DNA from: Candidatus Nanopelagicales bacterium
Lineage (GTDB): Bacteria > Actinomycetota > Actinomycetes > S36-B12
NCBI GenBank assembly: GCA_009694585.1
Contig: SHUQ01000001.1
Span: 7,815 to 71,814 of the forward strand
Reading direction: 5' to 3'
Length of the DNA stretch: 64,000 bases
The notes beneath the pieces are model-generated. The model was given only the letters and a program-made list of their open reading frames with translations, did no database searches and was not told the origin of the DNA. Of this stretch, positions 33,021-64,000 are shown piece by piece; position 1 is the stretch's first letter, and every line of letters begins with the position of its first letter. The position numbers and the translations under genes are program-made.

Positions 33021-34739
33021 GTGACCGAAACAACGTCCGCCGCAAAATCAACCAAAGGTAGCGGCAGTGACCTCTCAGCAATGTTGCTTCCCGAGTTGAA
33101 ACAGGTGGCCTCCAAATTGGGCATCGCTGGCTCCCGCGCTATGCGCAAGGGGGACCTAGTAGCAGCAATAAGTGAAAAACGGCAGGGCAGCGAGCGCTCA
33201 AGTGGCGGGGGTCGCGCACCGCGAACCACCTCGCGCACAACGGCAACTGCATCGCCGGCCGCCGCCGAACAGGCAGAAGCTCCAGCCCAGGCCGCACCAG
33301 CAACTGACGACAACGCGCCTCGCACCGATAACCGCGACAACCGCAGTGGCGGTGATCGTAATAACCGTAATTTCAATAATGACCGCGGTGATCGTAATAA
33401 CCGTAATTTCAATAATGACCGCGGGAACCGCAACAGCGGCAATGACCGGAATAACGGTGGCGATCGCAGTGGTGGTAACGATCGGAGCGATCGCGGGTTC
33501 GATGGCAGTCGCCGCCGGGGCCGTGATCGTTCGCGTGATCGAGGTCCGCGCCGTGAGGGCGGTTTCAACGAAGCCGAACTCGAAATTTCACCAGATGACA
33601 TCCTGACCCCGGTAGCGGGCATTCTCGATGTCATGGAGAACTACGCATTTGTTCGCACCAGTGGCTATATGCCTGGGCCGAATGACGTTTATGTGTCGTT
33701 GTCGCTGGTGCGCAAGCATGGGCTCCGCAAGGGCGATGCGGTAACCGGATTAGTCCGGCAGCCACTCGACGGTGAGCGCCGAGAGAAATTTAACCCGCTA
33801 GTTCGCATCGATACTGTCAACGGTGGCGATCTTGAAGCCGCACGTAATCGACCAGAGTTCTCGAAGCTGACTCCGTTGTACCCACAAGATCGGCTGCGCC
33901 TAGAGAATGACCCGAGTAATTTGACCACCCGGGTAATTGATCTAGTATCACCGATCGGCAAGGGTCAGCGCGGCTTGATCGTCTCCCCGCCAAAGGCGGG
34001 CAAGACCATGGTGCTGCAAGCAATCGCGAATGCGATCACCGCAAATAACCCCGAAGTACATCTCATGGTCGTTCTAGTTGACGAGCGCCCAGAAGAAGTA
34101 ACCGACATGCAACGCTCGGTCAAGGGTGAGGTAATTGCGTCGACATTTGACCGCCCGGCTGAAGATCACACCATCATCGCTGAACTGTCTATTGAGCGAG
34201 CTAAGCGTTTGGTCGAACTCGGCCACGATGTCGTGGTGCTACTTGACTCGATGACCCGTCTGGGTCGTGCCTACAACTTGGCGGCGCCGGCCTCGGGTCG
34301 GATCCTCTCCGGTGGCGTCGACTCAACTGCGCTCTACCCACCCAAGAAATTCTTCGGCGCGGCCCGCAATATCGAAGGTGGTGGCTCCCTCACCATCTTG
34401 GCCACGGCATTAGTTGAAACTGGTTCACGGATGGACGAGGTGATCTTCGAAGAGTTCAAGGGCACCGGCAATATGGAACTCAAGTTAGACCGCCGCCTGG
34501 CCGATAAGCGGGTATTCCCAGCGGTTGATGTTGACTCCTCCGGTACTCGCAAGGAAGAACTGCTCATGACTCCCGAGGAGTTAAAAATCGTCTGGAAGTT
34601 GCGCAGGGTGCTTCATGCCCTTGACCAGCAGCAGGCGATCGAGTTGCTGCTTACCAAATTGCGCGACACCAAGACCAATGCCGAGTTCTTGATGCAGATT
34701 CAAAAGACCACTGCATCAGGCAATGGTGAAGACGACTAG
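33021..34739 (+). CDS. rho: Transcription termination factor Rho with an Arg/Asn/Asp/Gly-rich N-terminal insertion
   Basis: 572 aa. Rho N-terminal helix bundle ([14 protein letters not shown]), ~130-aa low-complexity insert, CSD-like RNA-binding domain, Walker A SPPKAGKT. Confidence 0.95.
33351..33422 (+). repeat. Perfect 2 x 36-bp in-frame tandem repeat inside the rho insertion domain
   Basis: ggtgatcgtaataaccgtaatttcaataatgaccgc occurs twice back to back (33351-33386, 33387-33422). It encodes [12 protein letters not shown] twice. Confidence 0.95.
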
Positions 34740-49243: not shown

Positions 49244-50521
49244 GTGGAGGTCTTGAGCATCGTGGGCGGGCAGCGCCTGCACGGCACCGTTCGGGTCACC
49301 GGTGCTAAGAACTCCGTCCTAAAACTCATGGCGGCCGCACTATTGGCCCAGGGCACTACCACCTTGACCGAAGTACCAAATATCTTAGATGTCGAGATCA
49401 TGGCGGAGTTGCTCCGCAGGCTAGGGTGTGCAGTTGACCACGATGGCCAAACTCGGCGAGTAAGTATCTCGGTGCCAGAAGTATTGGCCCATCGAGCCGA
49501 CTATGACCTGGTGCGGCGCATGCGGGCATCGATTTGTGTGCTCGGCCCACTGCTAGCTCGATGCGGAGCGGCTGAGGTGGCGCTACCTGGCGGCGACAAC
49601 ATCGGGTCACGGGGTTTGGATATGCACATCGCGGGCCTGCGGAAGTTGGGGGCTGAAGTCACCAATGAGCATGGCTATTTGATTGCCACATCCCAGCAAC
49701 GTTTGAGTGGCGGCTCAATTTGGCTGGACTTCCCGAGCGTCGGTGCCACTGAAACATTGTTGATGGCAGCGGTGACGGCTAGTGGGGTGAGCGTTATTGA
49801 GAATGTCGCCCGTGAGCCAGAGATTGTCGATATCTGCGAGATGCTAATCAATATGGGTGCGTCGATTGACGGAGTAGGTACCGCAACTTTAACAATCGAA
49901 GGCGTTGACCAACTAGAGCCCGTGGTGCACTGCACGGTCAGCGATCGGATTGTCGCGGGCACTTGGGCGGTCGCGGCTGCGATGACCCACGGCGATATAA
50001 CGGTACTGAACTCTAATCCGGGGCATCTGCAAGTGGCGCTCGACAAACTCGTCAGCGCCGGCGCTCAGGTAAGTGTCGTCGCTGATGGGTTTCGCGTAGA
50101 GATGGATAACAGGCCACTAGCGGTCGATGTTGTCACCTTGCCTTACCCGGGTTTCCCCACCGACCTACAACCACAGTTCATTGCACTAAATGCCATCGCG
50201 AGTGGAGCGGCACTTGTTACTGAGAATCTTTTCGAGGCTCGGTTTCGCTTTGTTCAGGAACTGGCCCGACTCGGGGCAGATGTGCGCACCGATGGGCATC
50301 ATGCGCTGGTGCGCGGGCGCGCGAATTTATCCGGTGCACCGGTTGAGGCCACCGATATTCGCGCGGGTGCAGGGTTGGTCCTTGCTGGTTTAGTTGCAGA
50401 CGGCACCACGACTATCTACGGGGCGTCGCATCTTGATCGCGGCTATGCCGACTTCGTGCCGGCATTAATTGGTCTGGGGGCTCAAGTAGAGCGAATCGAA
50501 GCCGAGTCGCTTTTTACTTGA
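49244..50521 (+). CDS. murA: UDP-N-acetylglucosamine 1-carboxyvinyltransferase
   Basis: 425 aa. [12 protein letters not shown], and the active-site loop with D in place of C ([11 protein letters not shown]), as in actinobacterial MurA. Confidence 0.95.
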
Positions 50522-50858
50522 TTCGAGCTAGCACTTTTTGAGCGTTTTCAACGTCGGCTGGCCAGACCATCAACCTGGGGCCGTCATTAGTCTGTGCGAG
50601 GTTAGCTCGTACCCCGGCCGCCTCGAGCCCGCGGCGCCACAGTTCACCCTCGAGATAGGTGCTCGGGGTGGCAAGGACGACCAGCATCCCGTACTCGGAG
50701 GGGGCGCCACTACGTGCCGGTGCCGCAACTACGCTGTTGCCGCGGCTAAAAGCCCAGCGCAAGATCAGCGCTAAGACGGCGACGCCGAGCAGGGCAAATA
50801 GGGGCCCAAAGGCGAAGGAGTAGGCATTCCAGGCGGGCACGAGATAAGTCTCACGCAC
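50514..50858 (-). CDS. Hypothetical small membrane protein
   Basis: 114 aa, one TM helix then a soluble domain. No family recognised. Confidence 0.4.
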
Positions 50859-50884
50859 TCAAGGAATTCCCGCACGGTGATCAG

Positions 50885-52927
50885 GTGACCGGGCCTCGCT
50901 ATCCTTATGGGGTGCCCACTGCCATGGATCAATCGCGTGCCAAGGACAAGCCGTGGCTGATCCGGACTTATGCCGGTCACTCCTCGCCTAGTGAATCCAA
51001 TGCCCTGTACCGGCGGAACTTGGCCAAAGGACAGACCGGACTGTCGGTGGCTTTTGATCTGCCCACCCAAACCGGGTACGACCCAGATTCACCGATGGCC
51101 CTCGGCGAGGTTGGCAAAGTCGGGGTGCCGATTGCTCACCTAGGCAATATGCGAGCGTTGCTGGAGGCGATTCCGCTCGACAAAATGAATACCTCAATGA
51201 CCATCAACGCCACCGCGATGTGGATGCTGGCGTTATATGTGGTGGCCGCTGAAGATACTGGGGTACCCGCCAACCTATTGCAGGGTACGACCCAGAACGA
51301 CATCATCAAGGAGTACCTGTCGCGCGGAACATATGTGTTCCCCCCCGAGCCATCCCTTCGGTTGATCACTGACATGGTCACTTATACTGTGAAGAATATT
51401 CCGAAATGGAATCCGATCAACATTTGTAGCTACCACCTACAAGAGGCCGGAGCGACTCCGGTTCAGGAAATTGCCTACGCCATGAGCACCGCGATCGCGG
51501 TGCTCGATGCGGTGCGCGACAGCGGTCAGGTAGATCCTGCTGACTTTGGTGATGTGGTAGCGCGAATGTCCTTCTTTGTCAATGCCGGCGTGCGTTTCGT
51601 TGAAGAAATGTGCAAGATGCGCGCTTTCGTGGAGATTTGGGATCGCATTACCTTGACGAGATACGGTGTTCAGAACCCAGATCAGCGAAGGTTCAGGTAC
51701 GGGGTGCAAGTTAACTCACTGGGTTTAACTGAAGCGCAACCTGAGAACAATGTGCAACGAATAGTTCTTGAGATGCTCGCTGTGACGATGTCAAAGGATG
51801 CAAGGGCGCGCGCGATTCAACTCCCAACCTGGAATGAGGCGTTAGGGTTGCCGCGCGCCTGGGATCAGCAGTGGTCACTTCGCATTCAGCAAGTACTTGC
51901 CTTCGAGAGCGATCTACTGGAGTACGAGGATCTCTTCACCGGCTCTGTGGTCATTGAAAGAATTGTCAACGAAATGATTGCCGAAGCCACCACTGAACTC
52001 GACTATGTGCTCGAGCTAGGGGGTGCGGTCGCGGCGGTCGAGAGTGGATATATGAAACAGCAGATGGTGCAGGCTCACTCCCAGCGGCGCACTCGTATTG
52101 AATCTGGTGAACAAATCGTCGTAGGAGTAAATGCTTTCCAGGAAAGTGAAGCTAATCCGCTGCTTGCTGATCTAGATGCTGCCGTGCTCGTGGTAGATCC
52201 CGAGGTTGAAGCCCAGGCAATTGCAGACCTTAAATCGTGGCGGGCTGCACGTGATCACGAGCAGGTTGCTAAGGCTCTGGCGCAACTGCATGAACAGGCC
52301 AAGACTTCCGTGAACCTCATGAAAGCGACTATCGAATGTGTTCGTGTAGGTGTTACCACCGGCGAGTGGACGTCCACACTGCGCGACGTATTCGGCGAAT
52401 ATCGGGCACCTACAGGTATCGGTGGGGTGGTCGGGGCATCCAGTTCTGATCTGGACGAGGTGCGCCGTGCGGTTGCAATTACCTCGGATGAATGTGGTTC
52501 ACCACTTCGTTTGCTGGTTGGCAAGCCTGGCTTAGATGGACACTCCAATGGTGCCGAGCAAATCGCGGTCCGCGCCCGTGATGCGGGATTCGAAGTTATC
52601 TATCAAGGCATCAGATTGACCCCGGAGCAGATCGTGGCGGCGGCAGTTGCCGAGGATGTGGATGTAGTGGGCCTGTCAATTCTCTCCGGATCACATCGGG
52701 CCTTGGTGCCGGCGGTGGTAGATGGGCTGCGTGCCCGCGGCCTAACTGAGGTGCCCGTGGTGGTCGGTGGCATCATTCCGGACGCCGATGCCACTTGGTT
52801 GCGTGAGCGCGGGGTGGCCGAGGTATTTACTCCTAAGGATTACGACGCGACCGTCATCATGCGGAGCATTGTTGACACGGTGCGTGCCGCCAAATCAATG
52901 CCACCCTTGCCAAGTCCGTGCGCATAG
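50885..52927 (+). CDS. Adenosylcobalamin-dependent acyl-CoA mutase, single-chain (MeaA/ethylmalonyl-CoA-mutase-like)
   Basis: 680 aa. [15 protein letters not shown]...[22 protein letters not shown] resembles MeaA as I recall it. The C-terminal B12 domain has DxHxxG (LDGHSNG). Substrate not assignable. Confidence 0.8.
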
Positions 52928-53004
52928 TCATTGCCCGCTGCACCGTCAACTATGTCGGTCGCTTAAAAGCGCACCTCCCCGCAGCCGTTCGGGTGATCAT
53001 GATC
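52918..53004 (+). pseudogene. nucS: nucS (EndoMS) 5' fragment, first 29 codons only
   Basis: GTG 52918 (overlapping the mutase stop) gives [29 protein letters not shown]. This is the conserved NucS N-terminus. Similarity ends abruptly at ~53004-53007. Confidence 0.8.
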
Positions 53005-53007
53005 CAA

Positions 53008-53151
53008 TTGAGCGACCCACCCGAACCTCGCTCGGAGATCACAGTTCCAAGACCTGCGAGGGAGGTGCCGCGATGACTATCACGATCCTCAATTCCTTCT
53101 TCGGGGTCGCGGTCCTGATCCTCTCGGCGGCTGGCCTTGTTGTCGTCTTCG
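53008..53151 (+). repeat. Inverted-repeat arm A: orphan copy of the permease RBS plus first 79 nt
   Basis: Exact reverse complement of 58460-58603, checked by hand at 144/144 nt. Contains GAGGGAGG and an ATG at 53073 encoding [26 protein letters not shown]. Confidence 0.95.
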
Positions 53152-53634
53152 ATCACCATGACGTCGCTGCAGTTCAACGGCAAATGCTGCCGCATCCCGA
53201 GAACGTACGGCGTAGTGAAGCTCATAGTCAGCACCCTGAACCTTCAGCTGCGCAGCCATCGACATCAACGGGGTCACGCCGATCCCGCCAGCCAGCAGCA
53301 CAGAACACTTGGATTCCGAGACCAGGTGAAAGTCATTTCTCGGGTCCGAGACCTGCAGCGAATCGCCCGGGCTAAGACCGTGCATGAATTGAGATCCGCC
53401 ATTGCTGATTTCTTGCTGGCGCACGGCGAGTCGGTACTCCGATTGGTCCGGCGGTCAGACTTCAGTCACGAGCGAGTAGCACCGCGTCGTGCCGTCAGGA
53501 ATTGCAATTCGCACATGGGATCCGGGGGTGAATCTCGGGAGTGCCGTGCGAGTCGCACGAGCGAGAGTCAACTCTCGAACGCCTGGAGCGATGAGTTGAC
53601 TGTCGATCACGACCAACTGCAAACTCATCGACAT
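53152..53634 (-). pseudogene. PDR/VanB-type FMN-NAD ferredoxin reductase, nonsense-interrupted and 3'-truncated
   Basis: GGAG plus ATG 53634 gives MSMSLQLVVID...GSHVRIAIPDGTTRCYSLVTEV, then an in-frame TGA (53455-53457). It continues PPDQSEYRLAVRQQEISNGGSQFMH...VLLAGGIGVTPLMSM...ELHYAVRSRDAAAFAVELQRRHGD and ends at the repeat boundary 53151/53152. The rest of the NAD domain and the 2Fe-2S domain are absent. Confidence 0.7.
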
Positions 53635-53652
53635 TCTTGGCTCCACATCCAT

Positions 53653-53684
53653 ATTCTATGACATTTCATATATTAATCGTCAAG
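53653..53684 (-). promoter_or_regulatory. Candidate promoter/operator (site 1 of a shared motif) upstream of the reductase relic
   Basis: Minus strand: TTGACG, AT-rich spacer containing ATATATGA, then TAGAAT. Shares TATGAC-N3-TCATATATT-N3/4-GTCAAG with 59937-59963. Confidence 0.45.
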
Positions 53685-53729
53685 TTTCTTGCAACCTGCA
53701 GGGCCGTCCTGAGACCTCGCGGTGCAACG

Positions 53730-55043
53730 TCAGGACAAGCGGCAATCAAGGGGCAATCTCGGCGATGCCACGAGGCGCTCAACGGCGGATCCCACGTGCA
53801 GCACGGCCGACTCTCCGTAGTGTCGACCAATGATTTGCAGGCCCACCGGCATCTGATCACCTGACCTCTGGCACGGAACGCTCATCGCCGGTAATCCAAT
53901 GATCGAAGCCGGGACATTGAGTCCAAGCAACGCCGGGACCACCGGAACATCCCCTTGAGGGAGCGCAACCACAGTGTCGGTCGACAAGGGCGCCACACAT
54001 GGAAGCGTCGGGGCAGTCACGACATCAACATGTCGAGTTGCTTCGATCCACGAGCGGGCGATGGCAGCACGGATCCTTTGAGCGCGGATGTACTGGCGCG
54101 CAGGGCGCAACGCTCCCACCTCGAGATATGACCGCACCTCGTCTGAATACATGTCCGCTTTCGCCGGATACCACTCCCGATGGGCGTCCAGACTCTCCGG
54201 CAGGTTGACGGCGAAGGCCACAGCAACCGCGTATTCAAGCAAGGGAATGTGCACAGGCACGAGGACCGCTCCCGCTTCCTCAAGTGCCGACAACGAGTCT
54301 CGGACAGCGTTCTCGACCTCGGGATCAACGTTGTCGAAGAAGTAGTTCGTCGGGACTCCGATGCGAACACCTGCAACATCCTTGGCGAGATCGCGTGCGT
54401 AATCTTCAGCTCGATCCGATATGACCGACAGCACATCCGCCACATCGGCGACCGTTCGGCAGATGGGACCTACGGCGTCAAAGCTCCAGGCCATCGTCAC
54501 TACACCCGTCACCGGCACGAGACCGTGCGTCGGACGCAACCCGACCACTCCGCAACAGGCAGCAGGGATACGCACTGAACCCAACGTGTCAGTCCCCAGT
54601 GAGAGGTCGCAGTAGCCTGCGGCCACAACTGCGGCGGACCCTCCACTTGAACCACCAACTACTCGATCGAGATCGATGGGGTTGTTCGTCTCAGGGGTCG
54701 TCACACCAAAGGCAAATTCGTGGGTTCGAGCCTTTCCGATGAGGATGGCTCCCGCCCGGCTCATTCGATCGACCGCGACCGCATCGGTGTCAGGAATCCG
54801 CCCTTCTAGGACCTTAGAGCCCGCACTTGTTTCGATGCCCGCGGTATCGAAGAGATCCTTTGCCGCCCAGAGCCGGCCCTCAAGTCGCCGAGACCTCCCT
54901 ATGCTTACCGCATCATCTGACGCGCCCGCCTCCGACATGGCGCGGGTTAGGCATGTCCTGGCAAAGGCCGAGACCAGTGGCTCTCGCTCCTTGATGGACA
55001 CCTCACTTCTCGCAACAGCCGCAGCGGCCGAGATACCCGTCAC
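53730..55043 (-). CDS. Amidase-signature enzyme (AtzE/GatA-like)
   Basis: 437 aa. Catalytic Lys region LIGKARTHEF, GGSSGGSAA, GTDTLGSVRIPAACCG. Its GTG start overlaps the TGA of the upstream 67-aa ORF (GTGA). Confidence 0.9.
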   Translation of the reverse strand: MTGISAAAAVARSEVSIKEREPLVSAFARTCLTRAMSEAGASDDAVSIGRSRRLEGRLWAAKDLFDTAGIETSAGSKVLEGRIPDTDAVAVDRMSRAGAILIGKARTHEFAFGVTTPETNNPIDLDRVVGGSSGGSAAVVAAGYCDLSLGTDTLGSVRIPAACCGVVGLRPTHGLVPVTGVVTMAWSFDAVGPICRTVADVADVLSVISDRAEDYARDLAKDVAGVRIGVPTNYFFDNVDPEVENAVRDSLSALEEAGAVLVPVHIPLLEYAVAVAFAVNLPESLDAHREWYPAKADMYSDEVRSYLEVGALRPARQYIRAQRIRAAIARSWIEATRHVDVVTAPTLPCVAPLSTDTVVALPQGDVPVVPALLGLNVPASIIGLPAMSVPCQRSGDQMPVGLQIIGRHYGESAVLHVGSAVERLVASPRLPLDCRLS

Positions 55044-55243
55044 GACGTCTCTCCATAGCGAGCGACCGGCGGCGCAGACAGCAGGAGCAGTGATTCCGGG
55101 AAGTCGTCTATGGCATCGAACATGCCGCGGAACGTGGCGTCGATTGCAGCGATCACTTCGGCTCGCTCGCCCGGAGGCAGATGTACTCCCGCCGACTCAG
55201 CAATCACCACAACCTCCTCGCTTGTGAACTCACGGGACGTCAT
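55040..55243 (-). CDS. 67-aa acidic protein, candidate AtzG/GatC-like amidase partner
   Basis: MTSREFTSEEVVVIAESAGVHLPPGERAEVIAAIDATFRGMFDAIDDFPE... Preceded by GGAAGGAG and translationally coupled to the amidase. Size and position match AtzG-type subunits. Homology not verified. Confidence 0.55.
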   Translation of the reverse strand: MTSREFTSEEVVVIAESAGVHLPPGERAEVIAAIDATFRGMFDAIDDFPESLLLLSAPPVARYGETS

Positions 55244-55255
55244 ATTTGCTCCTTC

Positions 55256-55945
55256 CTAGAGAACGAGATGTCTTTCGATTTGTTCCCGCGATGAGCCAGT
55301 GACCGGGCCCGCCTCGACAACCCGCCCGCTCGACATGACGATGAAGTCATGCGCAAGGGGAAGGGCGTAGTTCAAGTGCTGTTCCACAAGGAGGATGCTC
55401 AAGCCTCTGCTGCTCGCACGTCTGACCGCCTCTTGGAACATTCCGAGCAGGCCCGGCTGAACGCCCTCGACGATCTCGTCGAGAATCGCTACACGGGAGG
55501 CGTTCGCCAATGTTCGAACGGCAATGAGCATCTTCTGCTCACCGCCGCTGAGCGTCCCCGCCTTTTGTGTCATGCGCTCGCGAATCCGCGGAAAGCAGTT
55601 GAGCATCGCTTCCTCCTCTCTATTGTCACCGCCCTGTCGAGCCAATTTGAGGTTCGTTTCAACGGTCAGGTCCGAGAAAATCGAACGTTCCTGCGCGGCA
55701 TAGCCGACCCCCGCCCTGACGATCACATGGGTTCGCTTTCCGCTGATCGGTTCGCCATCAAGAAGCACTCGCCCACAAGAAAGCGGGAGATAGCCCATGA
55801 TCCCCCTCAAGAGCGTCGTCTTCCCGACTCCGTTCCGGCCGAAGATTGCCACGATCTGACCGGGCTCGACTGATAGCGAGACATCAGTAACCACCTGGGT
55901 GGTGCCATAGCCCGTGCCGAGATGCTCCACCTCCAGTCCCGTCAT
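55256..55945 (-). CDS. ABC transporter ATP-binding protein (LivF/UrtE-like)
   Basis: 229 aa. Walker A GRNGVGKTT, signature LSGGEQKM, Walker B ILDE. ATGA overlap with the upstream gene. Confidence 0.9.
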   Translation of the reverse strand: MTGLEVEHLGTGYGTTQVVTDVSLSVEPGQIVAIFGRNGVGKTTLLRGIMGYLPLSCGRVLLDGEPISGKRTHVIVRAGVGYAAQERSIFSDLTVETNLKLARQGGDNREEEAMLNCFPRIRERMTQKAGTLSGGEQKMLIAVRTLANASRVAILDEIVEGVQPGLLGMFQEAVRRASSRGLSILLVEQHLNYALPLAHDFIVMSSGRVVEAGPVTGSSREQIERHLVL

Positions 55946-57714
55946 CCTCCCTCCCCCAGGTAGAGGTCGCGAACCTTGCGATCCTCGCTTACCTCCGAGA
56001 CCGTGCCATCTGCAATGAGGGCTCCCTGATCGAGGACGAGAATGCGATCGGCAATGCTTCGCACGAAGTCGAAGTCATGTTCAACGATCAAAACCGCAGC
56101 ACCACTTCTCGCGAGGTAGACGAGCACCTGCCCGATAGCTGCGCGGTCAGCGGACTCCATTCCCGCCGTAGGTTCGTCGAGTAGGACGACCTGGGACTGC
56201 GAGCCGAGGACCATGCATACCTCGAGGAACTGCTTCTGCCCGTGAGCCAAACTGCCGGCGTCGTCATTGAGCCGTGCGAGTAGACCGTGCTGCCGCGCAA
56301 GCGACATGACATCTTCTGGGATCGGGAGGCATTGATCGCGAACCAGCCAATCCCTCATTCGCAACTTGGGGTCACGCGCTCCGATGAACAGGTTGTCAGC
56401 GACTGACAGGCTCTCGAACACACGCGGATTTTGAAACTTGCGCTTCACTCCAAGTCGCGCGACCTTCCAGATCGGTATCCCGAGCATCTCTTTGCCCACG
56501 AGGATCGCCTTGCCGTGCGCATCGGAGAGTGCTCCGCTCAGGAATGCGATCAGTGTCGACTTTCCTGCGCCATTCGGCCCGATCAAGGCAGTCACGTGGC
56601 CGAAGTCGAAGGACACTCGATCAACGTCGAGTGCAGTGAAGGAACCGAATCGCTGGATAAGCTTTTCGCCTACGAATGCCGGGCCCTCTGGGTGCGAAGA
56701 CGAGGCGACTGCGGGCTCGAGTTGCAGAGGCCTAGGCGCATTGAGTCTGGAACCAAGGACTCGGATCGGCCAATAGAGCCCGTCCGGCAGGAACATCACG
56801 ACGATGATGAAGATCAAAGCTAGAAGGATCTGCCAGTAGTCAAGGAAGATTCCACTCAACTCGTTGCTCACCATATTCACAAGCAGAGCACCAAATGCAG
56901 CTGCTGCCAGTGAGTTTCTCCCCCCGATGGCGCACCAGAGCACGATGAAAGTGGAGAACGCAAAGCCGATTCTGTCCGGAGCCGCGATCTGGGAATAGAG
57001 TGCGTCGAGCACGCCTGCGAAGGCCGTCACGATGGCACCGAGGACAAAAACCCTGCGCTGTACGAGTTCGGCGTTCGTTCCGAAGAACCGTATTCTCATC
57101 GAGTCGTCGCGCACGCTTGCAATAACGCGGCCAAGGTTGCTGCGCGTTATCACCGCCATGCCGAGCAGCAACATGGCGAACACCACAAAGCCGATGTAAT
57201 AGCTCAGCAGGGGATCCTTCGGAAGCACCCGATCTAACGGGATGCCATTTTGACCACCCGTTACGGACGTGAACTTCAACGCGAGTTGTTCAAACGCGAC
57301 CGCCGTGCAGAAGGTCATGACAGAAATCAGGAAAGCACCTGCCCGAACACCGAACGACACCCGAGCAAGGATCCATGCGAGCGCCCCGGCCGCCGCGCAG
57401 CCGATGAAGATGCCGGCAACGAGCCCTGGAGCTACAGGGTACGACTCGATCCCCTTGGCAGCGGCATACGCACCAAGCCCAAAGAATGCCGCCTGTCCAA
57501 GGGCCAAGATTCCGCAGTAGCCCCACACGAGTGCCAACGCGCTGGCCGCCATCGCGTACGGGAAATAGGAGGCCAGACTGGAGACTCTGTACGAGTCCAG
57601 CAGGAACGGACAGGCTGCCAAAATGATGAGCAGGCACACCGGATCGCGCCACCACGGCGAGTTGAGGATCGGTACTGCCGAAGCGAACGACCAACCGTTC
57701 AACGCGTTCTTCAC
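55942..57714 (-). CDS. Fused ABC permease (LivM/UrtC-like) and ATPase (LivG/UrtD-like)
   Basis: 590 aa. An N-terminal ~330-aa polytopic permease, then Walker A GPNGAGKST, signature-region LAHGQKQFLE, Walker B LLDEP. Confidence 0.9.
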   Translation of the reverse strand: MKNALNGWSFASAVPILNSPWWRDPVCLLIILAACPFLLDSYRVSSLASYFPYAMAASALALVWGYCGILALGQAAFFGLGAYAAAKGIESYPVAPGLVAGIFIGCAAAGALAWILARVSFGVRAGAFLISVMTFCTAVAFEQLALKFTSVTGGQNGIPLDRVLPKDPLLSYYIGFVVFAMLLLGMAVITRSNLGRVIASVRDDSMRIRFFGTNAELVQRRVFVLGAIVTAFAGVLDALYSQIAAPDRIGFAFSTFIVLWCAIGGRNSLAAAAFGALLVNMVSNELSGIFLDYWQILLALIFIIVVMFLPDGLYWPIRVLGSRLNAPRPLQLEPAVASSSHPEGPAFVGEKLIQRFGSFTALDVDRVSFDFGHVTALIGPNGAGKSTLIAFLSGALSDAHGKAILVGKEMLGIPIWKVARLGVKRKFQNPRVFESLSVADNLFIGARDPKLRMRDWLVRDQCLPIPEDVMSLARQHGLLARLNDDAGSLAHGQKQFLEVCMVLGSQSQVVLLDEPTAGMESADRAAIGQVLVYLARSGAAVLIVEHDFDFVRSIADRILVLDQGALIADGTVSEVSEDRKVRDLYLGEGG

Positions 57715-58538
57715 CGACCTGACCTACTATCCTTGATCTTCATGGCAATCATGGCAACGACGAGCACCGCGATACTTGCGGTCGTAGCATCCGCGATCGT
57801 GGCAAATATCCCGCCAGTTCCGCCCAGAAGTCCAGCAGCCGGACCAATACCCAGCAACGTTGGGCCAGCGAGAATCGTTGTGAGGAAGCCACCGACAAGG
57901 AAGTTTCCGCCCATGGTGGGAGCGATGGTGACCATGGGAGCAAGCAGTGCACCAGCGACACCTGCTAGGAGCCACCCTGTCCCGAAACTCAAGGCGTACA
58001 CTCGATCTACGTTAATCCCAATGCCCCGTGCAAGGTCGGGATCACTGATGACCGCCCGCACTGTTTTACCCAGCGACGTGAACCGCTCGATGACCCACAT
58101 TGCGGTGAGGAGCACAGCAGCAAAGGCGATGATGAAGAGTCGGTAGGCGCTGAAATCACTGCCGAGGATGCTCACTGGGGCATCGAAGGGGGCATCCAAC
58201 GAGCTGTACCCGGGGTCGAATGCACCGATGAGCTCACGGATAAGCAAGCCCAGCCCCCACGTCGCGAGGATGGTGTCGAGAATTCGTCGATAGAGCCGCC
58301 GGATGAGGAGTCGCTCGATTACCACGCCAAGGACACCAATACCGATCCCGGCCACAACAATGCCCAGCCAGAACGGCATCCAGTCCCTCGCGATGAGAGC
58401 GACGTAGGCACCAAGCATCATGGCTTCACCGTGTGCGAAGTTCACGACCTTCATGAGACCGAAGACGACAACAAGGCCAGCCGCCGAGAGGATCAGGACC
58501 GCGACCCCGAAGAAGGAATTGAGGATCGTGATAGTCAT
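57711..58538 (-). CDS. ABC permease (LivH/UrtB-like)
   Basis: ATG 58538 is preceded by GAGGGAGG. The 29-codon upstream extension in the track ORF is rejected. Polytopic, overlaps the next gene by 4 nt. Confidence 0.9.
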   Translation of the reverse strand: MTITILNSFFGVAVLILSAAGLVVVFGLMKVVNFAHGEAMMLGAYVALIARDWMPFWLGIVVAGIGIGVLGVVIERLLIRRLYRRILDTILATWGLGLLIRELIGAFDPGYSSLDAPFDAPVSILGSDFSAYRLFIIAFAAVLLTAMWVIERFTSLGKTVRAVISDPDLARGIGINVDRVYALSFGTGWLLAGVAGALLAPMVTIAPTMGGNFLVGGFLTTILAGPTLLGIGPAAGLLGGTGGIFATIADATTASIAVLVVAMIAMKIKDSRSGR

Positions 58539-58603
58539 CGCGGCACCTCCCTCGCAGGTCTTGGAACTGTGATCTCCGAGCGAGGTTCGGGTGGGTCGCT
58601 CAA
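58460..58603 (-). repeat. Inverted-repeat arm B (native permease start region)
   Basis: Identical to the reverse complement of 53008-53151. Spans 65 nt of the SBP-permease intergenic region plus the first 79 nt of the permease gene. Confidence 0.95.
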
Positions 58604-58653
58604 CTCGGCGTCCCACCCGAACCATCTCACTTCAGTCTTACGCGGTCAGTGCC

Positions 58654-59901
58654 TTAGAACGAGCACTGCTCCCCGGGTGATACATCCGGGAACGCCTTCA
58701 CGAGTGAGTACGTACCGGTTTCGTCAGCGACAAGGAGATGCATCGTGGCGGTTGCATGGTGCGTCTTCGCATCGATTGTGAGTGCTCCACGCGGAGAGTC
58801 AGGGAGTTGGATACCAGCCAGCGCCTTGATCAATGCAGATGCCTCGGTCGTGCCTGCTGCGTTGGCTGCCTTGGCGAGGGCCTGAATACCGTCGTAGGTC
58901 GCCTCAGTCAGCGTATTCTGAGAGAAGGCATCTGGATTCGCGGCCTTGTAGGCAGCAATCATCGCCTTGTTCGCCGGAGTATCAACCCCGGCAAAGTAGC
59001 CGAATCCGCCGTAAATGCCCGCTGCTGCTGCACCAAGCGCCTGAGCGTAGTCATCGGTCATCGTCAACGAAAGTTGCTTCGTTGACTTGTCCATGCCTGA
59101 TTGACGCCAGTTCTTCACGAACGCACCGAAATCACCACCGACGAGGCCCGTAACGATTGAGTCCGCGCCTGCGTCCTGCGCCTTCTTGAGGATTGCGCCG
59201 AAGTCCGAGGTACCGAACGGAACGAGCTCTTGACCCACGACCTTGCCGCCAGCAGACTCGATTGACTTCTGTGCCAGCGGGAACACCGTCTGCGGCCATA
59301 CATAGTCGTGACCGATGAAGAAAACCTTCTTGGCGCCGACATCCGTGACGAAGCTCTTGTAGATCGGGTCGTACTGCGCAGGAACCTCTCCGATGACGAA
59401 CATGTTTGGCAGACAGGCACCCCCCTCGTAAAGGGTCGTGTAGACAAAGGGAATCCCAGACTCTTCAACCTGACTGATGAAGCCCTCGCGAGTCGCGCTG
59501 TCCGTCATCGCGACAAGTGCGTTCACGCCATCCTGCTCTAGGAGCTTGCTCACAGCCTTGGCACCGGTCGTCGGATTAGATCCATCATCAGCAATGATGA
59601 TCTCAATCGGCTGACCATTGACACCCCCGAGATCGTTGATCTGCTTCATTGCAAGTTCGACAGTCGCCTGTACCGGCGGGCCATAGATTGCCGCAGGCCC
59701 AGTCAACGAGGTAACCACGCCTACTTTCAGTGGAGCCGATGGCGCCATTGACGCGGGCGCCATTGACGCGCTGGTAGCAGTCTCCGGTTGGCTCGCTGCT
59801 GTTGACGCCGACTCTGTTCCTGACGTACTTCCTGAGCTGCACGCTGCTAAGAGCATGCCCGCGGCGACCGTAGCAACCGCAAATGTGTTTCGCTTAAGCA
59901 T
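58654..59901 (-). CDS. Lipoprotein substrate-binding protein, AmiC/UrtA-like (amide/urea-binding branch of the Liv family)
   Basis: ATG 59901 after GGAGGA gives MLKRNTFAVATVAAGMLLAAC (lipobox). The core FVYTTLYEGGACLPNMF, FFIGHDYVWPQ, GVDTPANKAMI parallels AmiC motifs (YPTLYEGFE..PN, FIGSDYIYP, SIDTPASRAF) as I recall them. Confidence 0.8.
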   Translation of the reverse strand: MLKRNTFAVATVAAGMLLAACSSGSTSGTESASTAASQPETATSASMAPASMAPSAPLKVGVVTSLTGPAAIYGPPVQATVELAMKQINDLGGVNGQPIEIIIADDGSNPTTGAKAVSKLLEQDGVNALVAMTDSATREGFISQVEESGIPFVYTTLYEGGACLPNMFVIGEVPAQYDPIYKSFVTDVGAKKVFFIGHDYVWPQTVFPLAQKSIESAGGKVVGQELVPFGTSDFGAILKKAQDAGADSIVTGLVGGDFGAFVKNWRQSGMDKSTKQLSLTMTDDYAQALGAAAAGIYGGFGYFAGVDTPANKAMIAAYKAANPDAFSQNTLTEATYDGIQALAKAANAAGTTEASALIKALAGIQLPDSPRGALTIDAKTHHATATMHLLVADETGTYSLVKAFPDVSPGEQCSF

Positions 59902-59932
59902 GTAATTCCTCCAAGTGGAATAGGGTTGACAA

Positions 59933-59963
59933 AGTGTATGACTTCTCATATATTTCTGTCAAG
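59933..59963 (-). promoter_or_regulatory. Candidate promoter/operator (site 2 of the shared motif) for the transporter-amidase operon
   Basis: Minus strand: TTGACA, 18-nt AT-rich spacer with ATATATGA, then TACACT, ~30 nt upstream of the SBP ATG. Lies in the divergent region with the MarR gene. Palindrome CTGAGgcttCTCAG at 59971-59984. Confidence 0.45.
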
Positions 59964-60026
59964 GACTTTTCTGAGGCTTCTCAGGAGTTGAATTCATGCC
60001 AAGTACGCTAACGTTTTCCGAACACG

Positions 60027-60518
60027 ATGACCGGCAAACGGGGTTGGAGATCGGTTTCCATGGCCGAAGAAGCATTCGTCCCCGGATATCTCCTGTATCT
60101 GTTGACGGCGTCAAGTCAGGCCGCAAGCGGTCAATTCCACAGCTTCGTGAAGTCTCAGGGCCTTCGTGTTCCCGAGTGGCGAATACTTGCCTGCTTGCGG
60201 GACGCAGACGGTCAGATGATCACCGAGCTCTCGCGCAATGCACTGTTCGAGCAGTCCCATCTCACGAAGACCGTCAACCAGATGGAGGCACGAAGGCTCG
60301 TCACACGCAAGACAGACTCGCACGATCTGAGGCGCGTTCGAATTTGGCTCACGAGTCGTGGTCGCAAGCTGGCCGATCAACTGGTCACCGAAGCACGCGA
60401 GCACGAAGCGAAGCTTCTCGGCTCAATGTCAACATCGGATGCCCAGCGAATCAAGCCGGCACTGCGCTCACTTCTCGACCTGCTGAGCGAAGCCGACGTC
60501 GACATCGACATCGCATAG
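60027..60518 (+). CDS. MarR family transcriptional regulator
   Basis: 163 aa (or start at ATG 60060). Winged-helix core ITELSRNALFEQSHLTKTVNQMEARRLVTRKTDSHDLRRVRIWLTSRG. Confidence 0.85.
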   Translation: MTGKRGWRSVSMAEEAFVPGYLLYLLTASSQAASGQFHSFVKSQGLRVPEWRILACLRDADGQMITELSRNALFEQSHLTKTVNQMEARRLVTRKTDSHDLRRVRIWLTSRGRKLADQLVTEAREHEAKLLGSMSTSDAQRIKPALRSLLDLLSEADVDIDIA

Positions 60519-60567
60519 CGTCCACGAGCGGCCGAGGCATTAGCTGCGCCTGCCTCAAAGGTTTCGA

Positions 60568-61884
60568 ATGACTATGTGGGCGCCTCATGCTGAGGGAACG
60601 CCGTGGTCACACCTCGATGAACAGAACACAGCTGCATTGATTCGTCAACTGAGCTACGTCAACGAAAACTCAGCCTTCTACCGGGTGAAATGGCAAAAAG
60701 CCGGCATCGATGTGAAGTTGGTGCGGACGCTTGGAGATCTCCGCGAATTCCCCTTCACCGAGAAAGATGAACTCCGATTCGATCAGGTGACGAACGGTGG
60801 CCTTGGGTCTTATGCATGCGCAAGCCTTACCGAAACGATTCGAATTCACTCCTCGAGCGGCACAACCGGTCGCCCAAGTTTCATTGGCGTCACACGCGAA
60901 GACGCAGCGATCTGGACTGAGTCCCTGACACGAGTCTTCACCTGCATGGGCGTCACCGAAGACGACGTATTTCTTCATGCAACCGGACTCAGTTTCTTCG
61001 TAGGCGGACTCCCGGTCAAGGATGCCATTGAAGGGATCGGTGCGGCCTTCGTCCCGATCGGCACTGGAGCATCCGATCGACTCGTTCAGGCGAACGACGC
61101 GCTCGGCGGAACAGTCTTGTTCTGCACACCTTCATATGCGCGCTACTTAGCGGACTACATGCAACAGCGACTCGGGCGCGATGCGCGTTCACTCGGATTG
61201 CGGAGAGTCCTTCTTGGCGCTGAGCCAGGCGGCGGCGTGCGGGCAATCCGCGAGGGAATCGAAGCGGCCTTCGGATGCCACGTACGCGAGGCGTACGGCA
61301 ATAGCGATCTCCTGCCGGCATTCGCTGCGACGTGCGATGCTCAAGGCGGCAATCACCTGCTCACACCTGACCTGCTCTACCTAGAAGTGATCGACCCGGA
61401 CTCAGGCGAGGTCCTGCCATGGGAAACCGGAGTACAGGGTGAACTCGTCGGGACGAGCCTTCGACGGTGGTCCGCTCCCTTGGTTCGATTCCGGACACGC
61501 GATCACGTTGTCGTGAATACTCAGCCCTGCGAGTGCGGTCGATCCGGTCCGCGCATCCTGTGCGTCGGTCGCACCGACGACATGCTTATCGTCTCCGGCG
61601 TAAACATCTGGCCGAGCGCAATCGCCGACGTCGTGGAGACATTCGTTCCTAGAGTGACGGGCGCACTCCGTGTCATTGTCAACGGCTATGGACCAGCAGT
61701 ACCCCCGCCTCTCCATATTCGCGTTGAGCGCGCAGGAGACATTGACGAACAACTCGGGGACGAAATCGCCTTGGCGATCCGCGAACGACTTCAAGTCAAG
61801 GCGGCCATCGAACTCGTCCCGATGAACTCCATCCCCCGCTCGGAGATGAAGACCTCACTTATCGACAGGATTTTCCCATCATGA
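60568..61884 (+). CDS. PaaK-like adenylate-forming CoA ligase (phenylacetate-CoA ligase family)
   Basis: 438 aa. IHSSSGTTGRPSF, YGNSD and GRTDDMLIVSGVNIWP motifs. Substrate unknown. Confidence 0.85.
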   Translation: MTMWAPHAEGTPWSHLDEQNTAALIRQLSYVNENSAFYRVKWQKAGIDVKLVRTLGDLREFPFTEKDELRFDQVTNGGLGSYACASLTETIRIHSSSGTTGRPSFIGVTREDAAIWTESLTRVFTCMGVTEDDVFLHATGLSFFVGGLPVKDAIEGIGAAFVPIGTGASDRLVQANDALGGTVLFCTPSYARYLADYMQQRLGRDARSLGLRRVLLGAEPGGGVRAIREGIEAAFGCHVREAYGNSDLLPAFAATCDAQGGNHLLTPDLLYLEVIDPDSGEVLPWETGVQGELVGTSLRRWSAPLVRFRTRDHVVVNTQPCECGRSGPRILCVGRTDDMLIVSGVNIWPSAIADVVETFVPRVTGALRVIVNGYGPAVPPPLHIRVERAGDIDEQLGDEIALAIRERLQVKAAIELVPMNSIPRSEMKTSLIDRIFPS

Positions 61885-63059
61885 CTGGTCGAGCATTTCA
61901 TGAGACCTACATTGACCTTCGTGAATCATGGACCTCGCCATTCGTTCGGTGGCAGGGGGAACTTCAATCGGTGAACAGCCTTGATCTAGCCGCCATCGTC
62001 ACGGCGCGGGCCCTGGAACATCGTGCGATCGACCCGGCCGACTTTGACGAGGTCATCCTCGGCTGGACCGTGCCGCAGCGCCAGGGGTTCTACGGCGCTC
62101 CCACCCTCGCTGCACGTATTGGGGCGCCAACCACATCCGGCCCAATGATCTCCCAAGCGTGCGCGACGTCTGTCGCATGTCTCGTTGCCGCAGGTGCAAA
62201 CAATGAGAGTCGGGCTGCCCTGGTCGTCACAACTGACCGGACAAGTAATGGCCCGCTGCTTATCTATCCCCAACCCTCGGCTACGGGCGGTGCGCCCGAG
62301 CAGGAGACCTGGGTGCTCGACAACTTCGCGCGCGACCCGTGGGGCGGGTCATCCATGGCCGAGGCCGCTGATGCCGTCGCTCACGAAGAGGCGATCAGTC
62401 GCGAAGAGATCGACGACGTCACAATCCTCAGGCACGAGCAGTATGCCCTTGCGCTTGACGACGATCGAGCGTTCCATCGGCGCTACATGGTGGAGGCCGC
62501 ATTCACCGATCGCCGGGGAGATCACCGGGTGAGCGCTGACGCGGGAATCTACGCCCTCGATCCGGGGCGGACCCGCGCCTTGGTGGCTAGCGTTGATGGT
62601 GGCGTCGTCACCCGTGACACCCAGACTCACCCTGCGGACGGTTGCGCTGGCGTCGTCGTGCGGCATGGAGTTCCATCCCGGGGGCCGACGATTCGAATCC
62701 TCGCAGCGGGCTTCTCACGCGTTCAACGAGCACGGATGCCGAGGGCAGTGGTGCCTGCAGCGCTGTGTGCCTTGAGTGCGGCGGCGCTCAACATCCAAGA
62801 CATGAATCAAGTGAACACCCACAATCCATTTGCCGTCAGCGATGCGTACTTCAGTCGGGAAACGGGATTTTCATCCGAAGCCATGAACTGCTTCGGGTCG
62901 CCGCTCGTCTACGGCCATCCTCAAGCACCCACGGGCATGCGTGCTGTCATTGAACTGGCGCACTCATTGGCCCAACGAGGCGGTGGCCTCGGACTCTTCA
63001 CTGGATGCGCGGCTGGTGACACAGCGGGTGCACTCGTTATCGAGGTGACAGGCTCGTAG
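61881..63059 (+). CDS. Thiolase-like protein with atypical active-site motifs
   Basis: 392 aa. ATGA overlap with the ligase gene. Nucleophile Cys in ISQACATS. HNPFA replaces the usual NEAFA. GHPQAPTG, GCAAGDTAG. Confidence 0.75.
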   Translation: MTGRAFHETYIDLRESWTSPFVRWQGELQSVNSLDLAAIVTARALEHRAIDPADFDEVILGWTVPQRQGFYGAPTLAARIGAPTTSGPMISQACATSVACLVAAGANNESRAALVVTTDRTSNGPLLIYPQPSATGGAPEQETWVLDNFARDPWGGSSMAEAADAVAHEEAISREEIDDVTILRHEQYALALDDDRAFHRRYMVEAAFTDRRGDHRVSADAGIYALDPGRTRALVASVDGGVVTRDTQTHPADGCAGVVVRHGVPSRGPTIRILAAGFSRVQRARMPRAVVPAALCALSAAALNIQDMNQVNTHNPFAVSDAYFSRETGFSSEAMNCFGSPLVYGHPQAPTGMRAVIELAHSLAQRGGGLGLFTGCAAGDTAGALVIEVTGS

Positions 63060-63264
63060 ATCGAATGCGCGTTCACGTCGCCTGTGAGACCTTCACTCAG
63101 AACCCCATGACACGGCGTCTCGCCCAACTCGGTGCTTGGGCTGGTCAGGTCAAATGCAGATGTCCACCCGGGCCACCTATGAGCGCGGAGCCAGGTTCGA
63201 AGGGGATTCGGGCATGCGCTGGTGCAAGGCGGCTTAGGGTGCCCGGCTCAAGTGTAAAAGATTC

Positions 63265-63293
63265 TTGACATACATTTAGCATTCACCTACCTT
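63265..63293 (+). promoter_or_regulatory. Candidate promoter of the truncated HTH gene
   Basis: TTGACA (63265-63270), 17-nt spacer, TACCTT (63288-63293), only 3-6 nt before GTG/ATG 63297/63300 (near-leaderless). Confidence 0.35.
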
Positions 63294-63296
63294 GGC

Positions 63297-63420
63297 GTGA
63301 TGGAACTCGCGGAGTTGGGGGCCACGATTCGCCGCACCCGTCTCGCCAGCGGGATTAGCCAGGCGCAGATGGCACGCATGGTGGGCGTTTCACGAGCCAC
63401 GATCAACTACGCCGAGACGG
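63297..63420 (+). pseudogene. Truncated XRE/HipB-like helix-turn-helix gene (first ~41 codons only)
   Basis: [42 protein letters not shown] is a complete HTH. The frame then runs out-of-frame through nucS sequence (the 113-aa track ORF is chimeric). Confidence 0.6.
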
Positions 63421-63421
63421 G

Positions 63422-63817
63422 GGCGTTGATCTGGGCCTGCAAAAGGACGGCGTTGAGGCCCGCCTGCAGGCGCTGCTGGCCACCCATGTGGGGGTGCTGG
63501 GCGCCGATTGGACACTCATCCGCCGGGAGTACCCCACCGCCATTGGGCCGGTTGATCTGCTCTGCAGGGATGGCGCTGGGGCCACGGTGGCCGTCGAAAT
63601 TAAGCGGCGCGGTGAAATCGACGGGGTCGAGCAATTAACCCGGTATTTGGCCTTGTTAAACCGAGATCCGCTGCTCGCGCCGGTGCAGGGGGTATTTGCG
63701 GCGCAGGAGATCAAACCACAGGCGCGCACCTTGGCGCAGGATCGAGGGATCAGGTGCGTGGTATTGGATTACGACTACCTGTTGGGCACCGCCGATCCAA
63801 GTCTTCGACTGTTTTGA
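63422..63817 (+). pseudogene. nucS: nucS (EndoMS) 3' fragment: linker plus RecB-like nuclease domain
   Basis: [82 protein letters not shown]...[29 protein letters not shown] closely matches the C-terminal half of mycobacterial NucS as I recall it. Confidence 0.85.
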
Positions 63818-63837
63818 CCAACTGACAGAATCCACCT

Positions 63838-64000
63838 ATGAGCGAAGCCCCCATGAGCAATTCTTCAACCACAGCCATTCCTGTTGCCATCACCCGAGTT
63901 GGTGTTATTGGTTTAGGCACCATGGGGGCTGGTATAGCCGAGGTTGTGGCCCGCAGTGGGGTACGGGTTTGGGCGGTCGAAACAACCGAAGCCGACCTCG
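63838..64000 (+). CDS. 3-hydroxyacyl-CoA dehydrogenase (N-terminal part, runs off the window end)
   Basis: MSEAPMSNSSTTAIPVAITRVGVIGLGTMGAGIAEVVARSG is the NAD-binding GxGxxG N-terminus typical of Hbd/FadB-type enzymes. Confidence 0.75.
   Translation, partial: MSEAPMSNSSTTAIPVAITRVGVIGLGTMGAGIAEVVARSGVRVWAVETTEADL

Follow-up and report, generated by a model that had tools for sequence, protein, structure and literature searches.

We analysed a 64,000-nucleotide (nt) stretch of contig SHUQ01000001.1 from a Candidatus Nanopelagicales bacterium (hereafter the window), in which a perfect 144-bp inverted repeat is associated with a block of DNA that interrupts nucS, the non-canonical mismatch repair gene of Actinobacteria. 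Positions 53008–53151 (arm A) are the reverse complement of positions 58460–58603 (arm B): both strands were read, and all 144 consecutive bases agree with zero mismatches, as had been reported by an earlier reading made from the letters of the window alone (the sequence-only reading). A repeat search over 50–62 kb returned a single outstanding inverted repeat (53008–53154 / 58457–58603, 147 nt, 99%, 5302-nt spacer), and comparison of the 64-kb window with itself by BLAST returned, beyond the 144-bp pair, just a 40-nt tandem at 33349–33424; a perfect match of 144 nt in 64 kb cannot have arisen by chance. Each arm consists of 65 nt of the intergenic DNA between the genes for a substrate-binding lipoprotein (SBP) and a permease, including the ribosome-binding site (RBS) GAGGGAGG, and of the first 79 nt of the permease gene (275 amino acids (aa), BPD_transp_2), with the ATG of the copy in arm A at 53073. 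The same reading had described this composition, and it had recognised that arm B is joined to the intact gene and that arm A is an orphan wedged between nucS codon 29/30 and a cut reductase gene. All of this is borne out: arm B runs straight into the permease open reading frame (ORF), and by translation arm A is flanked by nucS (...RVIMI) on one side and by a reductase remnant ending ...AVELQRRHGD on the other. The features on which the argument turns are listed below; J1, J2 and J3 are the three novel junctions (nucS/arm A, arm A/reductase gene and helix-turn-helix (HTH) gene/nucS, respectively), and L-numbers are other public sequences.

52918–53007, plus strand: nucS 5′ remnant, codons 1 to about 30 (tblastn, translation and alignment to the nucS genes of L004, L095 and L096)
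53008–53151, plus strand: arm A, the orphan inverted copy; outer start in an intergenic hairpin loop, permease codons 1–26
53073–53375, plus strand: predicted chimeric 100-codon ORF (translation), a product of the junction
53148–53151, no strand: J2 microhomology CGAA (three-way comparison of the window, L089/L090/L094 and arm B)
53152–53634, minus strand: ferredoxin-reductase pseudogene, codons 1–161 of a 317-aa protein
58460–58603, minus strand: arm B, the native copy; unbroken joins to the SBP gene and, at the other end, to the intact permease gene
58585–58624, minus strand: intergenic hairpin GGTTCGGGTGGGACGC-cgagttga-GCGACCCACCCGAACC (DNA fold −20.2 kcal/mol, z = −5.7)
63297–63427, plus strand: truncated XRE-type HTH gene, about 43 codons, with J3 at its end
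63422–63817, plus strand: nucS 3′ remnant, codons about 97–227, RecB-like nuclease domain

A tblastn search with a NucS query matched 52918–53007 (residues 4–33) and 63422–63814 (residues 96–226) on the same strand; the downstream part had escaped the sequence-only reading. The whole of 53008–63421/63427 (10.4 kb) sits within nucS, in place of about 204 bp (codons ~30–96), and comprises a truncated 10.27-kb copy of an accessory gene cluster together with the 144-bp arm A; arm B is internal to the insert, 4.8 kb from its right end. There is no target-site duplication at the insert, about 204 bp of the target having been deleted instead, and both insert ends cut genes (the reductase and HTH genes) that are whole in the native locus. 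The reading frame of the nucS 3′ remnant differs from that of the HTH remnant upstream of it, and the longest ORF in the nucS 3′ remnant, of 109 aa, begins at an internal GTG (public call P0172, with NucS_C only). No single polypeptide with both NucS_N and NucS_C is encoded by the two remnants, which stand 10.4 kb apart, and the N-terminal domain, which mediates dimerisation and mismatch recognition (PMC8228993, PMC5290159), is mostly deleted. Because codons ~30–96 are gone and the remnants are separated, we conclude from the sequence that this nucS is inactivated; a second copy elsewhere in the genome is possible.

Both un-rearranged parents of this arrangement were found in relatives. The order mutase, nucS and 3-hydroxyacyl-CoA dehydrogenase (3HCDH) is uninterrupted in L004, the nearest GTDB species representative (91% aa identity in the mutase), and in the metagenomic contigs L095–L098 (NucS 92–94% identical at the aa level, flanks 80–83% identical at the nt level): in these five sequences the mutase gene is followed by an intact 227-aa nucS, a 599- or 604-aa 3HCDH gene and a 284- or 291-aa ORF, and in L095–L097 the upstream genes are the same as those of the window. 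The closest intact NucS in the public data searched is only 92–94% identical.

The native full cluster is present in L089–L094 and L099 at 92–99% nt identity to the window copy, and the homology extends past both window breakpoints. Beyond the amidase gene, the native cluster continues (L089:11410–16603 and L094:11573–18556) with the full 317-aa reductase (full length, with DmmA-like_N, NAD_binding_1 and Fer2 domains, in L089–L093), the alpha and beta subunits of a Rieske oxygenase, a CoA ligase and an SDR protein; at the opposite end it continues with the remainder of the HTH gene. Alphaproteobacterial proteins, those with a name being mostly from Rhodobacterales, share about 70% identity with the Rieske alpha subunit; outside the clade the Rieske subunit has no homologue above 70% identity, and its named best matches are alphaproteobacterial. 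These contents suggest that the native cluster encodes the catabolism of aromatic amides and was gained horizontally, with just the uptake/amidase and ligase/thiolase parts kept in the window lineage. No NCBI copy of the Rieske alpha subunit above 70% identity was found from the source metagenome-assembled genome (MAG), which is weak evidence in view of the incompleteness of that MAG. L089 is without 75 bp of the HTH gene that are kept in the window (L089:1650–1790 vs. 63300–63427), between two copies of GCCACGAT; deletions at short repeats evidently also happen in this cluster.

The parental sequences at the junctions were taken from L089, L090 and L094 for the cluster and from L004, L095 and L096 for nucS, and at all three novel junctions the parents share short or no homology. 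J1 lies at about 53005–53008 (...GTGATCATGATCCAA|TTGAGCG), with a microhomology of 0–3 nt. At J2, the native reductase gene reads ...GGTGATCGAA|TGTTC and the reverse complement of the permease gene at codon 26/27 reads ...GAGACCGAA|GACGAC; over a longer span, the reductase gene reads ...CATGGTGATCGAA|TGTTCTTG, the reverse-complemented permease gene ...CATGAGACCGAA|GACGACAAC, and the window ...CATGGTGATCGAA|GACGACAAC. Base by base, the polarity of J2 fits a ...CGAA-3′ end that primes on a 5′-TTCG-3′ of the same strand, and extension from the TTCG at permease codon 26/27 yields exactly GACGACAACAAGG..., the reverse complement of the arm. J3, at 63422–63427, has a microhomology of 5–6 nt, GGCGT(T): the HTH gene (...GACGGGGGCGTT|CCGCC) and nucS (...CTCGGCGT(C/T)|GATC) give the window sequence ...GGGGGCGTT|GATCTGG. 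The hairpin between the SBP and permease genes is conserved in L089, and the duplicated segment, at the outer end of arm A, begins in its loop. Reading onward through arm A and J2, the predicted chimeric ORF would combine the permease RBS, ATG and first transmembrane stretch with the antisense of the reductase remnant.

A 9-mer of nucS, GTTCGGGTG (52986–52994), located 12 nt upstream of J1, is also part of the left arm of the hairpin (58613–58621). It can pair with the start of arm A, in a fold that is not significant (−10.8 kcal/mol, z = −1.75). We considered GTTCGGGTG as a participant in strand switching and set it aside, as it fitted no specific model.

J1, J2, J3 and the boundaries of both arms recur in independent public data. 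The Logan unitigs L084–L087, from four Sequence Read Archive (SRA) runs, end at 53122, that is, 30 nt (k−1) into arm A from J2; L088 ends at 53037, 30 nt into arm A from J1; and L100 ends at about 58574, 30 nt into arm B. The Logan contigs L001–L003 and three ENA contigs cross J3, with the thiolase gene beside the 109-aa NucS_C-only ORF. The ENA contig 9TV1NWlo crosses the mutase gene, the nucS 5′ remnant, J1, arm A, J2, the reductase remnant and the amidase gene, with the 803-bp spacing from mutase to amidase and the orientation as in the window but with a different amidase allele (P0123), and the ENA contig BKWbyRI6 (5586 bp) consists of arm B, the interior and arm A. Unitigs pass unbranched through J1 in one run, J2 in four and J3 in three, so in those samples no intact nucS allele and no native full-length reductase gene is of comparable abundance. 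Across several independent runs the unitigs show the disrupted nucS as the sole allele, and in several independent metagenomes the knock-out dominates.

Strains that bear the junctions differ by 0–8 single-nucleotide polymorphisms (SNPs) per 2–6 kb outside one recombination tract. L084 and the window are identical over 3.9 kb, save an isolated SNP at 55448 and 44 mismatches in about 350 bp; the latter tract (L084:748–1100, corresponding to window 55898–56250) is 12% divergent, lies at the boundary between the ATPase and permease-ATPase genes and looks like an import by homeologous recombination. The reductase remnant has lost the C-terminal part of the protein, with its NAD-binding and 2Fe-2S regions. 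Five of its 483 positions differ from L089, and one of these differences creates an in-frame TGA (W60*; TGG to TGA at 53455–53457) that is also found in L084 and had been overlooked in the sequence-only reading. W60* is pseudogene decay that followed the truncation, and since it is common to the window and L084, the event predates the small diversity observed among junction-bearing strains.

The rearrangement is nevertheless recent, as had been proposed from the lack of divergence between the arms; the other part of that proposal, ongoing gene conversion or flipping, is needless. The junction-bearing population is near-clonal, and such a population predicts 0 differences in 144 nt, so the identity of the arms requires no gene conversion and we reject it as unnecessary. 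Among SNPs of junction-bearing strains, 12 are transitions and 5 are transversions, numbers too small, and a ratio not extreme enough, to give a clear mutator signature. Compared with L089, the window is about 1% divergent in the amidase, reductase-remnant, thiolase and AMP-ligase genes and 5–6% divergent in the SBP and permease genes, and this mosaic reflects later recombination. The affinities of the Rieske subunit, and the lack of a copy from the source MAG, fit a cluster that is accessory and horizontally mobile; they hint that a related strain, and not another copy within the genome itself, may have supplied the fragment.

The sequence-only reading had left two possibilities for the repeat, an invertible cassette or a scar of inverted duplication. 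Our comparison with the two parents, the microhomologies at J2 and J3 and the breakpoint in the hairpin loop favour the scar: we consider it likely that the repeat arose incidentally, through one complex event of illegitimate recombination (or several closely linked ones), and is no dedicated element. Arm A is an exact inverted copy of a segment that lies 5.3 kb away in the same insert; its best explanation is a fold-back or template switch that left a templated insertion in inverted orientation. Three features of the new DNA (junctions with short homology, a templated inverted insert and a hairpin-loop breakpoint), together with the loss of target sequence and the lack of element genes, make up the signature of microhomology-mediated template switching or fold-back priming, or possibly of end-joining of fragments. 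Because both parents, the junctions, the templated insert and the loop breakpoint can be read directly, the mechanism can be rebuilt almost base by base.

We infer the following order of steps, by fold-back or template switching in preference to end-joining and with a donor in the same genome or in a close strain. In the ancestor, the mutase gene, nucS and the 599-aa 3HCDH gene would have been contiguous. A 10.27-kb stretch of the accessory cluster would then have been joined into a break in nucS, with loss of about 204 bp (codons ~30–96); in the orientation of the cluster, this stretch would have carried the HTH remnant, the thiolase-like, AMP-ligase, MarR-like and SBP genes, the two permeases with their ATPases, the amidase gene and the reductase remnant. 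The 3′ end of the cut reductase gene, ...GATCGAA, would have paired at permease codon 26/27 with a TTCG that lies 5.3 kb back, on its own strand or on the sister strand; priming there would have allowed about 140 nt to be synthesised back towards the SBP gene; and synthesis would have halted in the loop of the strong hairpin between the SBP and permease genes, whereupon the joining of the new end to nucS codon ~30 would have produced arm A. The other end of the fragment would have joined nucS at GGCGT(T). The outcome would be an inactivated nucS, a transporter-amidase operon that is intact with its own promoter, and a pair of identical arms that are left as a passive substrate for occasional, presumably rare, RecA-mediated inversion of 53152–58459.

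Several points weigh against this scheme. The microhomology at J1 is uncertain, at 0–3 nt depending on the ancestral bases. End-joining of two fragments, a 144-bp piece released from the hairpin loop and the 10.27-kb piece, fits the same junctions. SbcCD is known to cut DNA hairpins; sbcD and sbcC homologues are encoded in the window at 3469–7238, fit such an end-joining model and may bear on a break at the intergenic hairpin. The flipped isomer may have formed first and have been turned into the present one later by homologous recombination; the sequence does not distinguish the two orders, since J1, J2 and J3 are common to both isomers. The donor could be the same genome or a close strain, and later recombination is evident in the mosaic of the window and L089. 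Finally, orientation is known from assembled contigs only, and there may be a minority population in the flipped orientation.

The alternative that survives best is a multi-step history, which we regard as unlikely but not negligible. In one version, a larger inverted duplication in nucS was trimmed by deletion to 144 bp, and deletions between short direct repeats do occur in the cluster, as with the 75 bp between GCCACGAT repeats in L089. In the other version, a piece running from the intergenic region to the reductase remnant and a piece running from the permease 5′ end to the HTH remnant were joined head-to-head, and a later inversion restored the SBP-permease operon; the flipped isomer has the same three junction sequences, and the intact operon is the arrangement that selection would favour. 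However, no intermediate is present in any public contig examined, and more events are needed than in a single series of template switches.

The second alternative is that the repeat operates as a switch. Recombination between the arms would indeed invert 53152–58459 and leave an intact permease ORF, because both arms hold the RBS, the ATG and codons 1–26; the geometry set out in the sequence-only reading is correct. We nevertheless find it improbable that RecA exchange between the arms, with no recombinase, flips the segment at a useful rate and is kept by selection, with the permease-to-amidase genes toggling between control by the SBP promoter and transcription that enters from the mutase operon. 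Either orientation would keep the permease, and the arms are 100% identical, which is as expected in a near-clonal population. In the ENA sample ERZ1305449, one strain has a contig that breaks exactly where the arms end on the outside (BKWbyRI6) and others that break where they end on the inside (4BSRazdQ, _mE_SaJA), a pattern that mixed orientations would produce; such breaks are, however, expected from any 144-bp repeat longer than k, and because any repeat above k yields them they carry no information on orientation. The two assemblies that read through arm A (the 75-kb MAG contig of the window and 9TV1NWlo) agree in orientation, and none of the public contigs examined is flipped; a metagenome search with a conserved 34-mer of the arm returned a single contig, L099, of the native type, which is uninformative on orientation. 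Inverted repeats do bound the segment, but they are gene sequence and far longer than typical recombinase sites. No promoter or alternative coding cassette within the segment would give a flip any meaning beyond the lost coupling to the SBP gene, and arm A is sufficiently explained as a by-product of the junction.

No recombinase, integrase, transposase or invertase domain was found among the scanned ORFs or in the region judged by synteny: Pfam scans covered ORFs of at least 180 aa over 1–41 kb and the main ORFs over 49–63 kb, the 67-aa ORF and the HTH fragment lying outside these scans, and 41–48 kb was judged by synteny with the annotated relative contig L095 (ATP synthase genes). NucS loss is reported to raise homeologous, not homologous, recombination (PMC8228993), and we find it improbable that the accidental repeat has been co-opted as a RecA phase switch in a lineage whose nucS knock-out has altered recombination and mutation rates, the nucS-null state then being a stable, environmentally successful mutator or hyper-recombinator genotype and not a passing one. 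There is no evidence here for a programmed DNA switch.

An assembly artefact, in which chimeric contigs or reads made arm A and its junctions, can be set aside almost entirely. The window does come from a short-read MAG contig, and the 144-nt length of the repeat is near common maximum k values and read lengths. However, J1, J2, J3 and the arm boundaries are found in unitigs of at least five SRA runs and in a separate ENA assembly, and a strain with the other amidase allele (P0123) also spans J1, arm A and J2; as every junction recurs in independent public assemblies, the arrangement is not an artefact. Just as implausible is a mobile origin, with the 10.4-kb block as a transposon, a genomic island or an integrative element and the repeat at its ends, even though an accessory cluster sits in a core gene and the native Rieske oxygenase, about 70% identical to alphaproteobacterial proteins, suggests a horizontal history: the repeat does not mark the two ends of the insert, as arm B lies inside it, 4.8 kb short of the right end; the scanned ORFs include no gene for a transposase or an integrase; the target shows a deletion of about 204 bp instead of a target-site duplication, and the insert ends cut through genes that are whole in the native locus.

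The repeat is an ordinary kind of structural scar, yet an unusually clean natural bacterial example. Its closest counterparts are microhomology-mediated break-induced replication/fork stalling and template switching (MMBIR/FoSTeS), fold-back inverted duplications and the tandem inversion duplications of Salmonella, which likewise have 0–6 nt of microhomology at their junctions; leading/lagging strand switches of the type of origin-dependent inverted-repeat amplification (ODIRA; PMC4689423, PMC10766183, PMC10766186) also belong to this group. Fold-back and template-switch systems share further features with the present locus: a short inverted segment with its template a few kb distant; a switch between strands where a short inverted match occurs (here CGAA/TTCG); and a breakpoint in a hairpin quasi-palindrome, with no recombinase. 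Those cases are mostly amplifications or copy-number variants in yeast, human and laboratory enterobacteria, whereas here a fragment of an accessory cluster was inserted in a core gene of a wild, uncultured freshwater actinobacterium, and the inverted copy is just 144 bp with a spacer of 5.3 kb. In the Hin, Gin and Fim switches, shufflons and ‘invertons’, repeats likewise flank a segment whose inversion changes the driving promoter; however, programmed invertible segments have a site-specific recombinase, of which none was found among the scanned ORFs, and here the arms are long gene fragments instead of short recombination sites, one orientation is observed, and the origin is clearly accidental. 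RecA-mediated inversions between rrn operons or insertion sequence (IS) copies likewise use perfect inverted homology, with either isomer viable, but rrn and IS repeats are multicopy, whereas the 144-bp repeat is a unique gene fragment, and a short one, so that the expected rate is low.

The main interest of the locus is the natural nucS knock-out created by the rearrangement, more than the repeat itself. In a survey of about 300 species of the class Actinobacteria, NucS was reported to be missing from only two, and its loss leads to hypermutation and increased homeologous recombination in the laboratory (PMC5290159, PMC8228993). In the published nucS/EndoMS mutants the non-canonical mismatch repair gene of Actinobacteria is likewise disrupted (PMC5290159, PMC8228993), but those that we found concern cultured genera (Mycobacterium, Streptomyces and the like), in which the gene was deleted by design or carries point polymorphisms. 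Here, instead, a natural insertional knock-out dominates an environmental population, in which the few available SNPs give no clear mutator signature. If there is no second copy of nucS, this population is a natural test of the persistence of a repair-deficient lineage outside the laboratory.

The remaining genes of the insert and its upstream neighbour are as follows.

50924–52927, plus strand: methylmalonyl-CoA mutase, 667 aa from the ATG at 50924 (ORF 50885–52927; Pfam MM_CoA_mutase and B12-binding)
53730–55043, minus strand: amidase-signature enzyme, 437 aa (Pfam Amidase; 100% identical to NCBI MSO26494.1 from a Candidatus Nanopelagicales MAG)
within 55040–58538, minus strand: 67-aa ORF at the start of the transporter block
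55256–55945, minus strand: ATP-binding cassette (ABC) ATPase (Pfam)
55942–57714, minus strand: permease-ATPase fusion (Pfam)
57711–58538, minus strand: LivH-type permease, 275 aa (Pfam)
58654–59901, minus strand: SBP, 415 aa, Peripla_BP_6 (start codon and lipobox checked)
from 59996, plus strand: 191-aa ORF, MarR-like by annotation at the same position in relatives
60568–61884, plus strand: PaaK-like AMP ligase (Pfam)
61881–63059, plus strand: thiolase-like protein (Pfam and annotations of related contigs)

The mutase gene is the upstream core neighbour of nucS, its stop codon overlapping the nucS start, and an identical mutase protein is present on independent contigs. The order of the transporter genes in 55040–58538 is the same in native clusters. 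The MarR-like ORF, the AMP-ligase gene and the thiolase-like gene (59996–63059) form the right half of the inserted fragment, and a promoter scan placed divergent promoter-like sites at 59926–59962, in the divergent region between the SBP and MarR-like genes. An Rfam search of 50000–64000 returned no match. The remainder of the window is conserved core (thr genes, rho, prfA, glyA, the atp operon, murA and the mutase gene), and the tandem at 33349–33424 is a 40-nt perfect direct repeat, with an offset of 36 nt, in the N-terminal region of rho (33021–34739).

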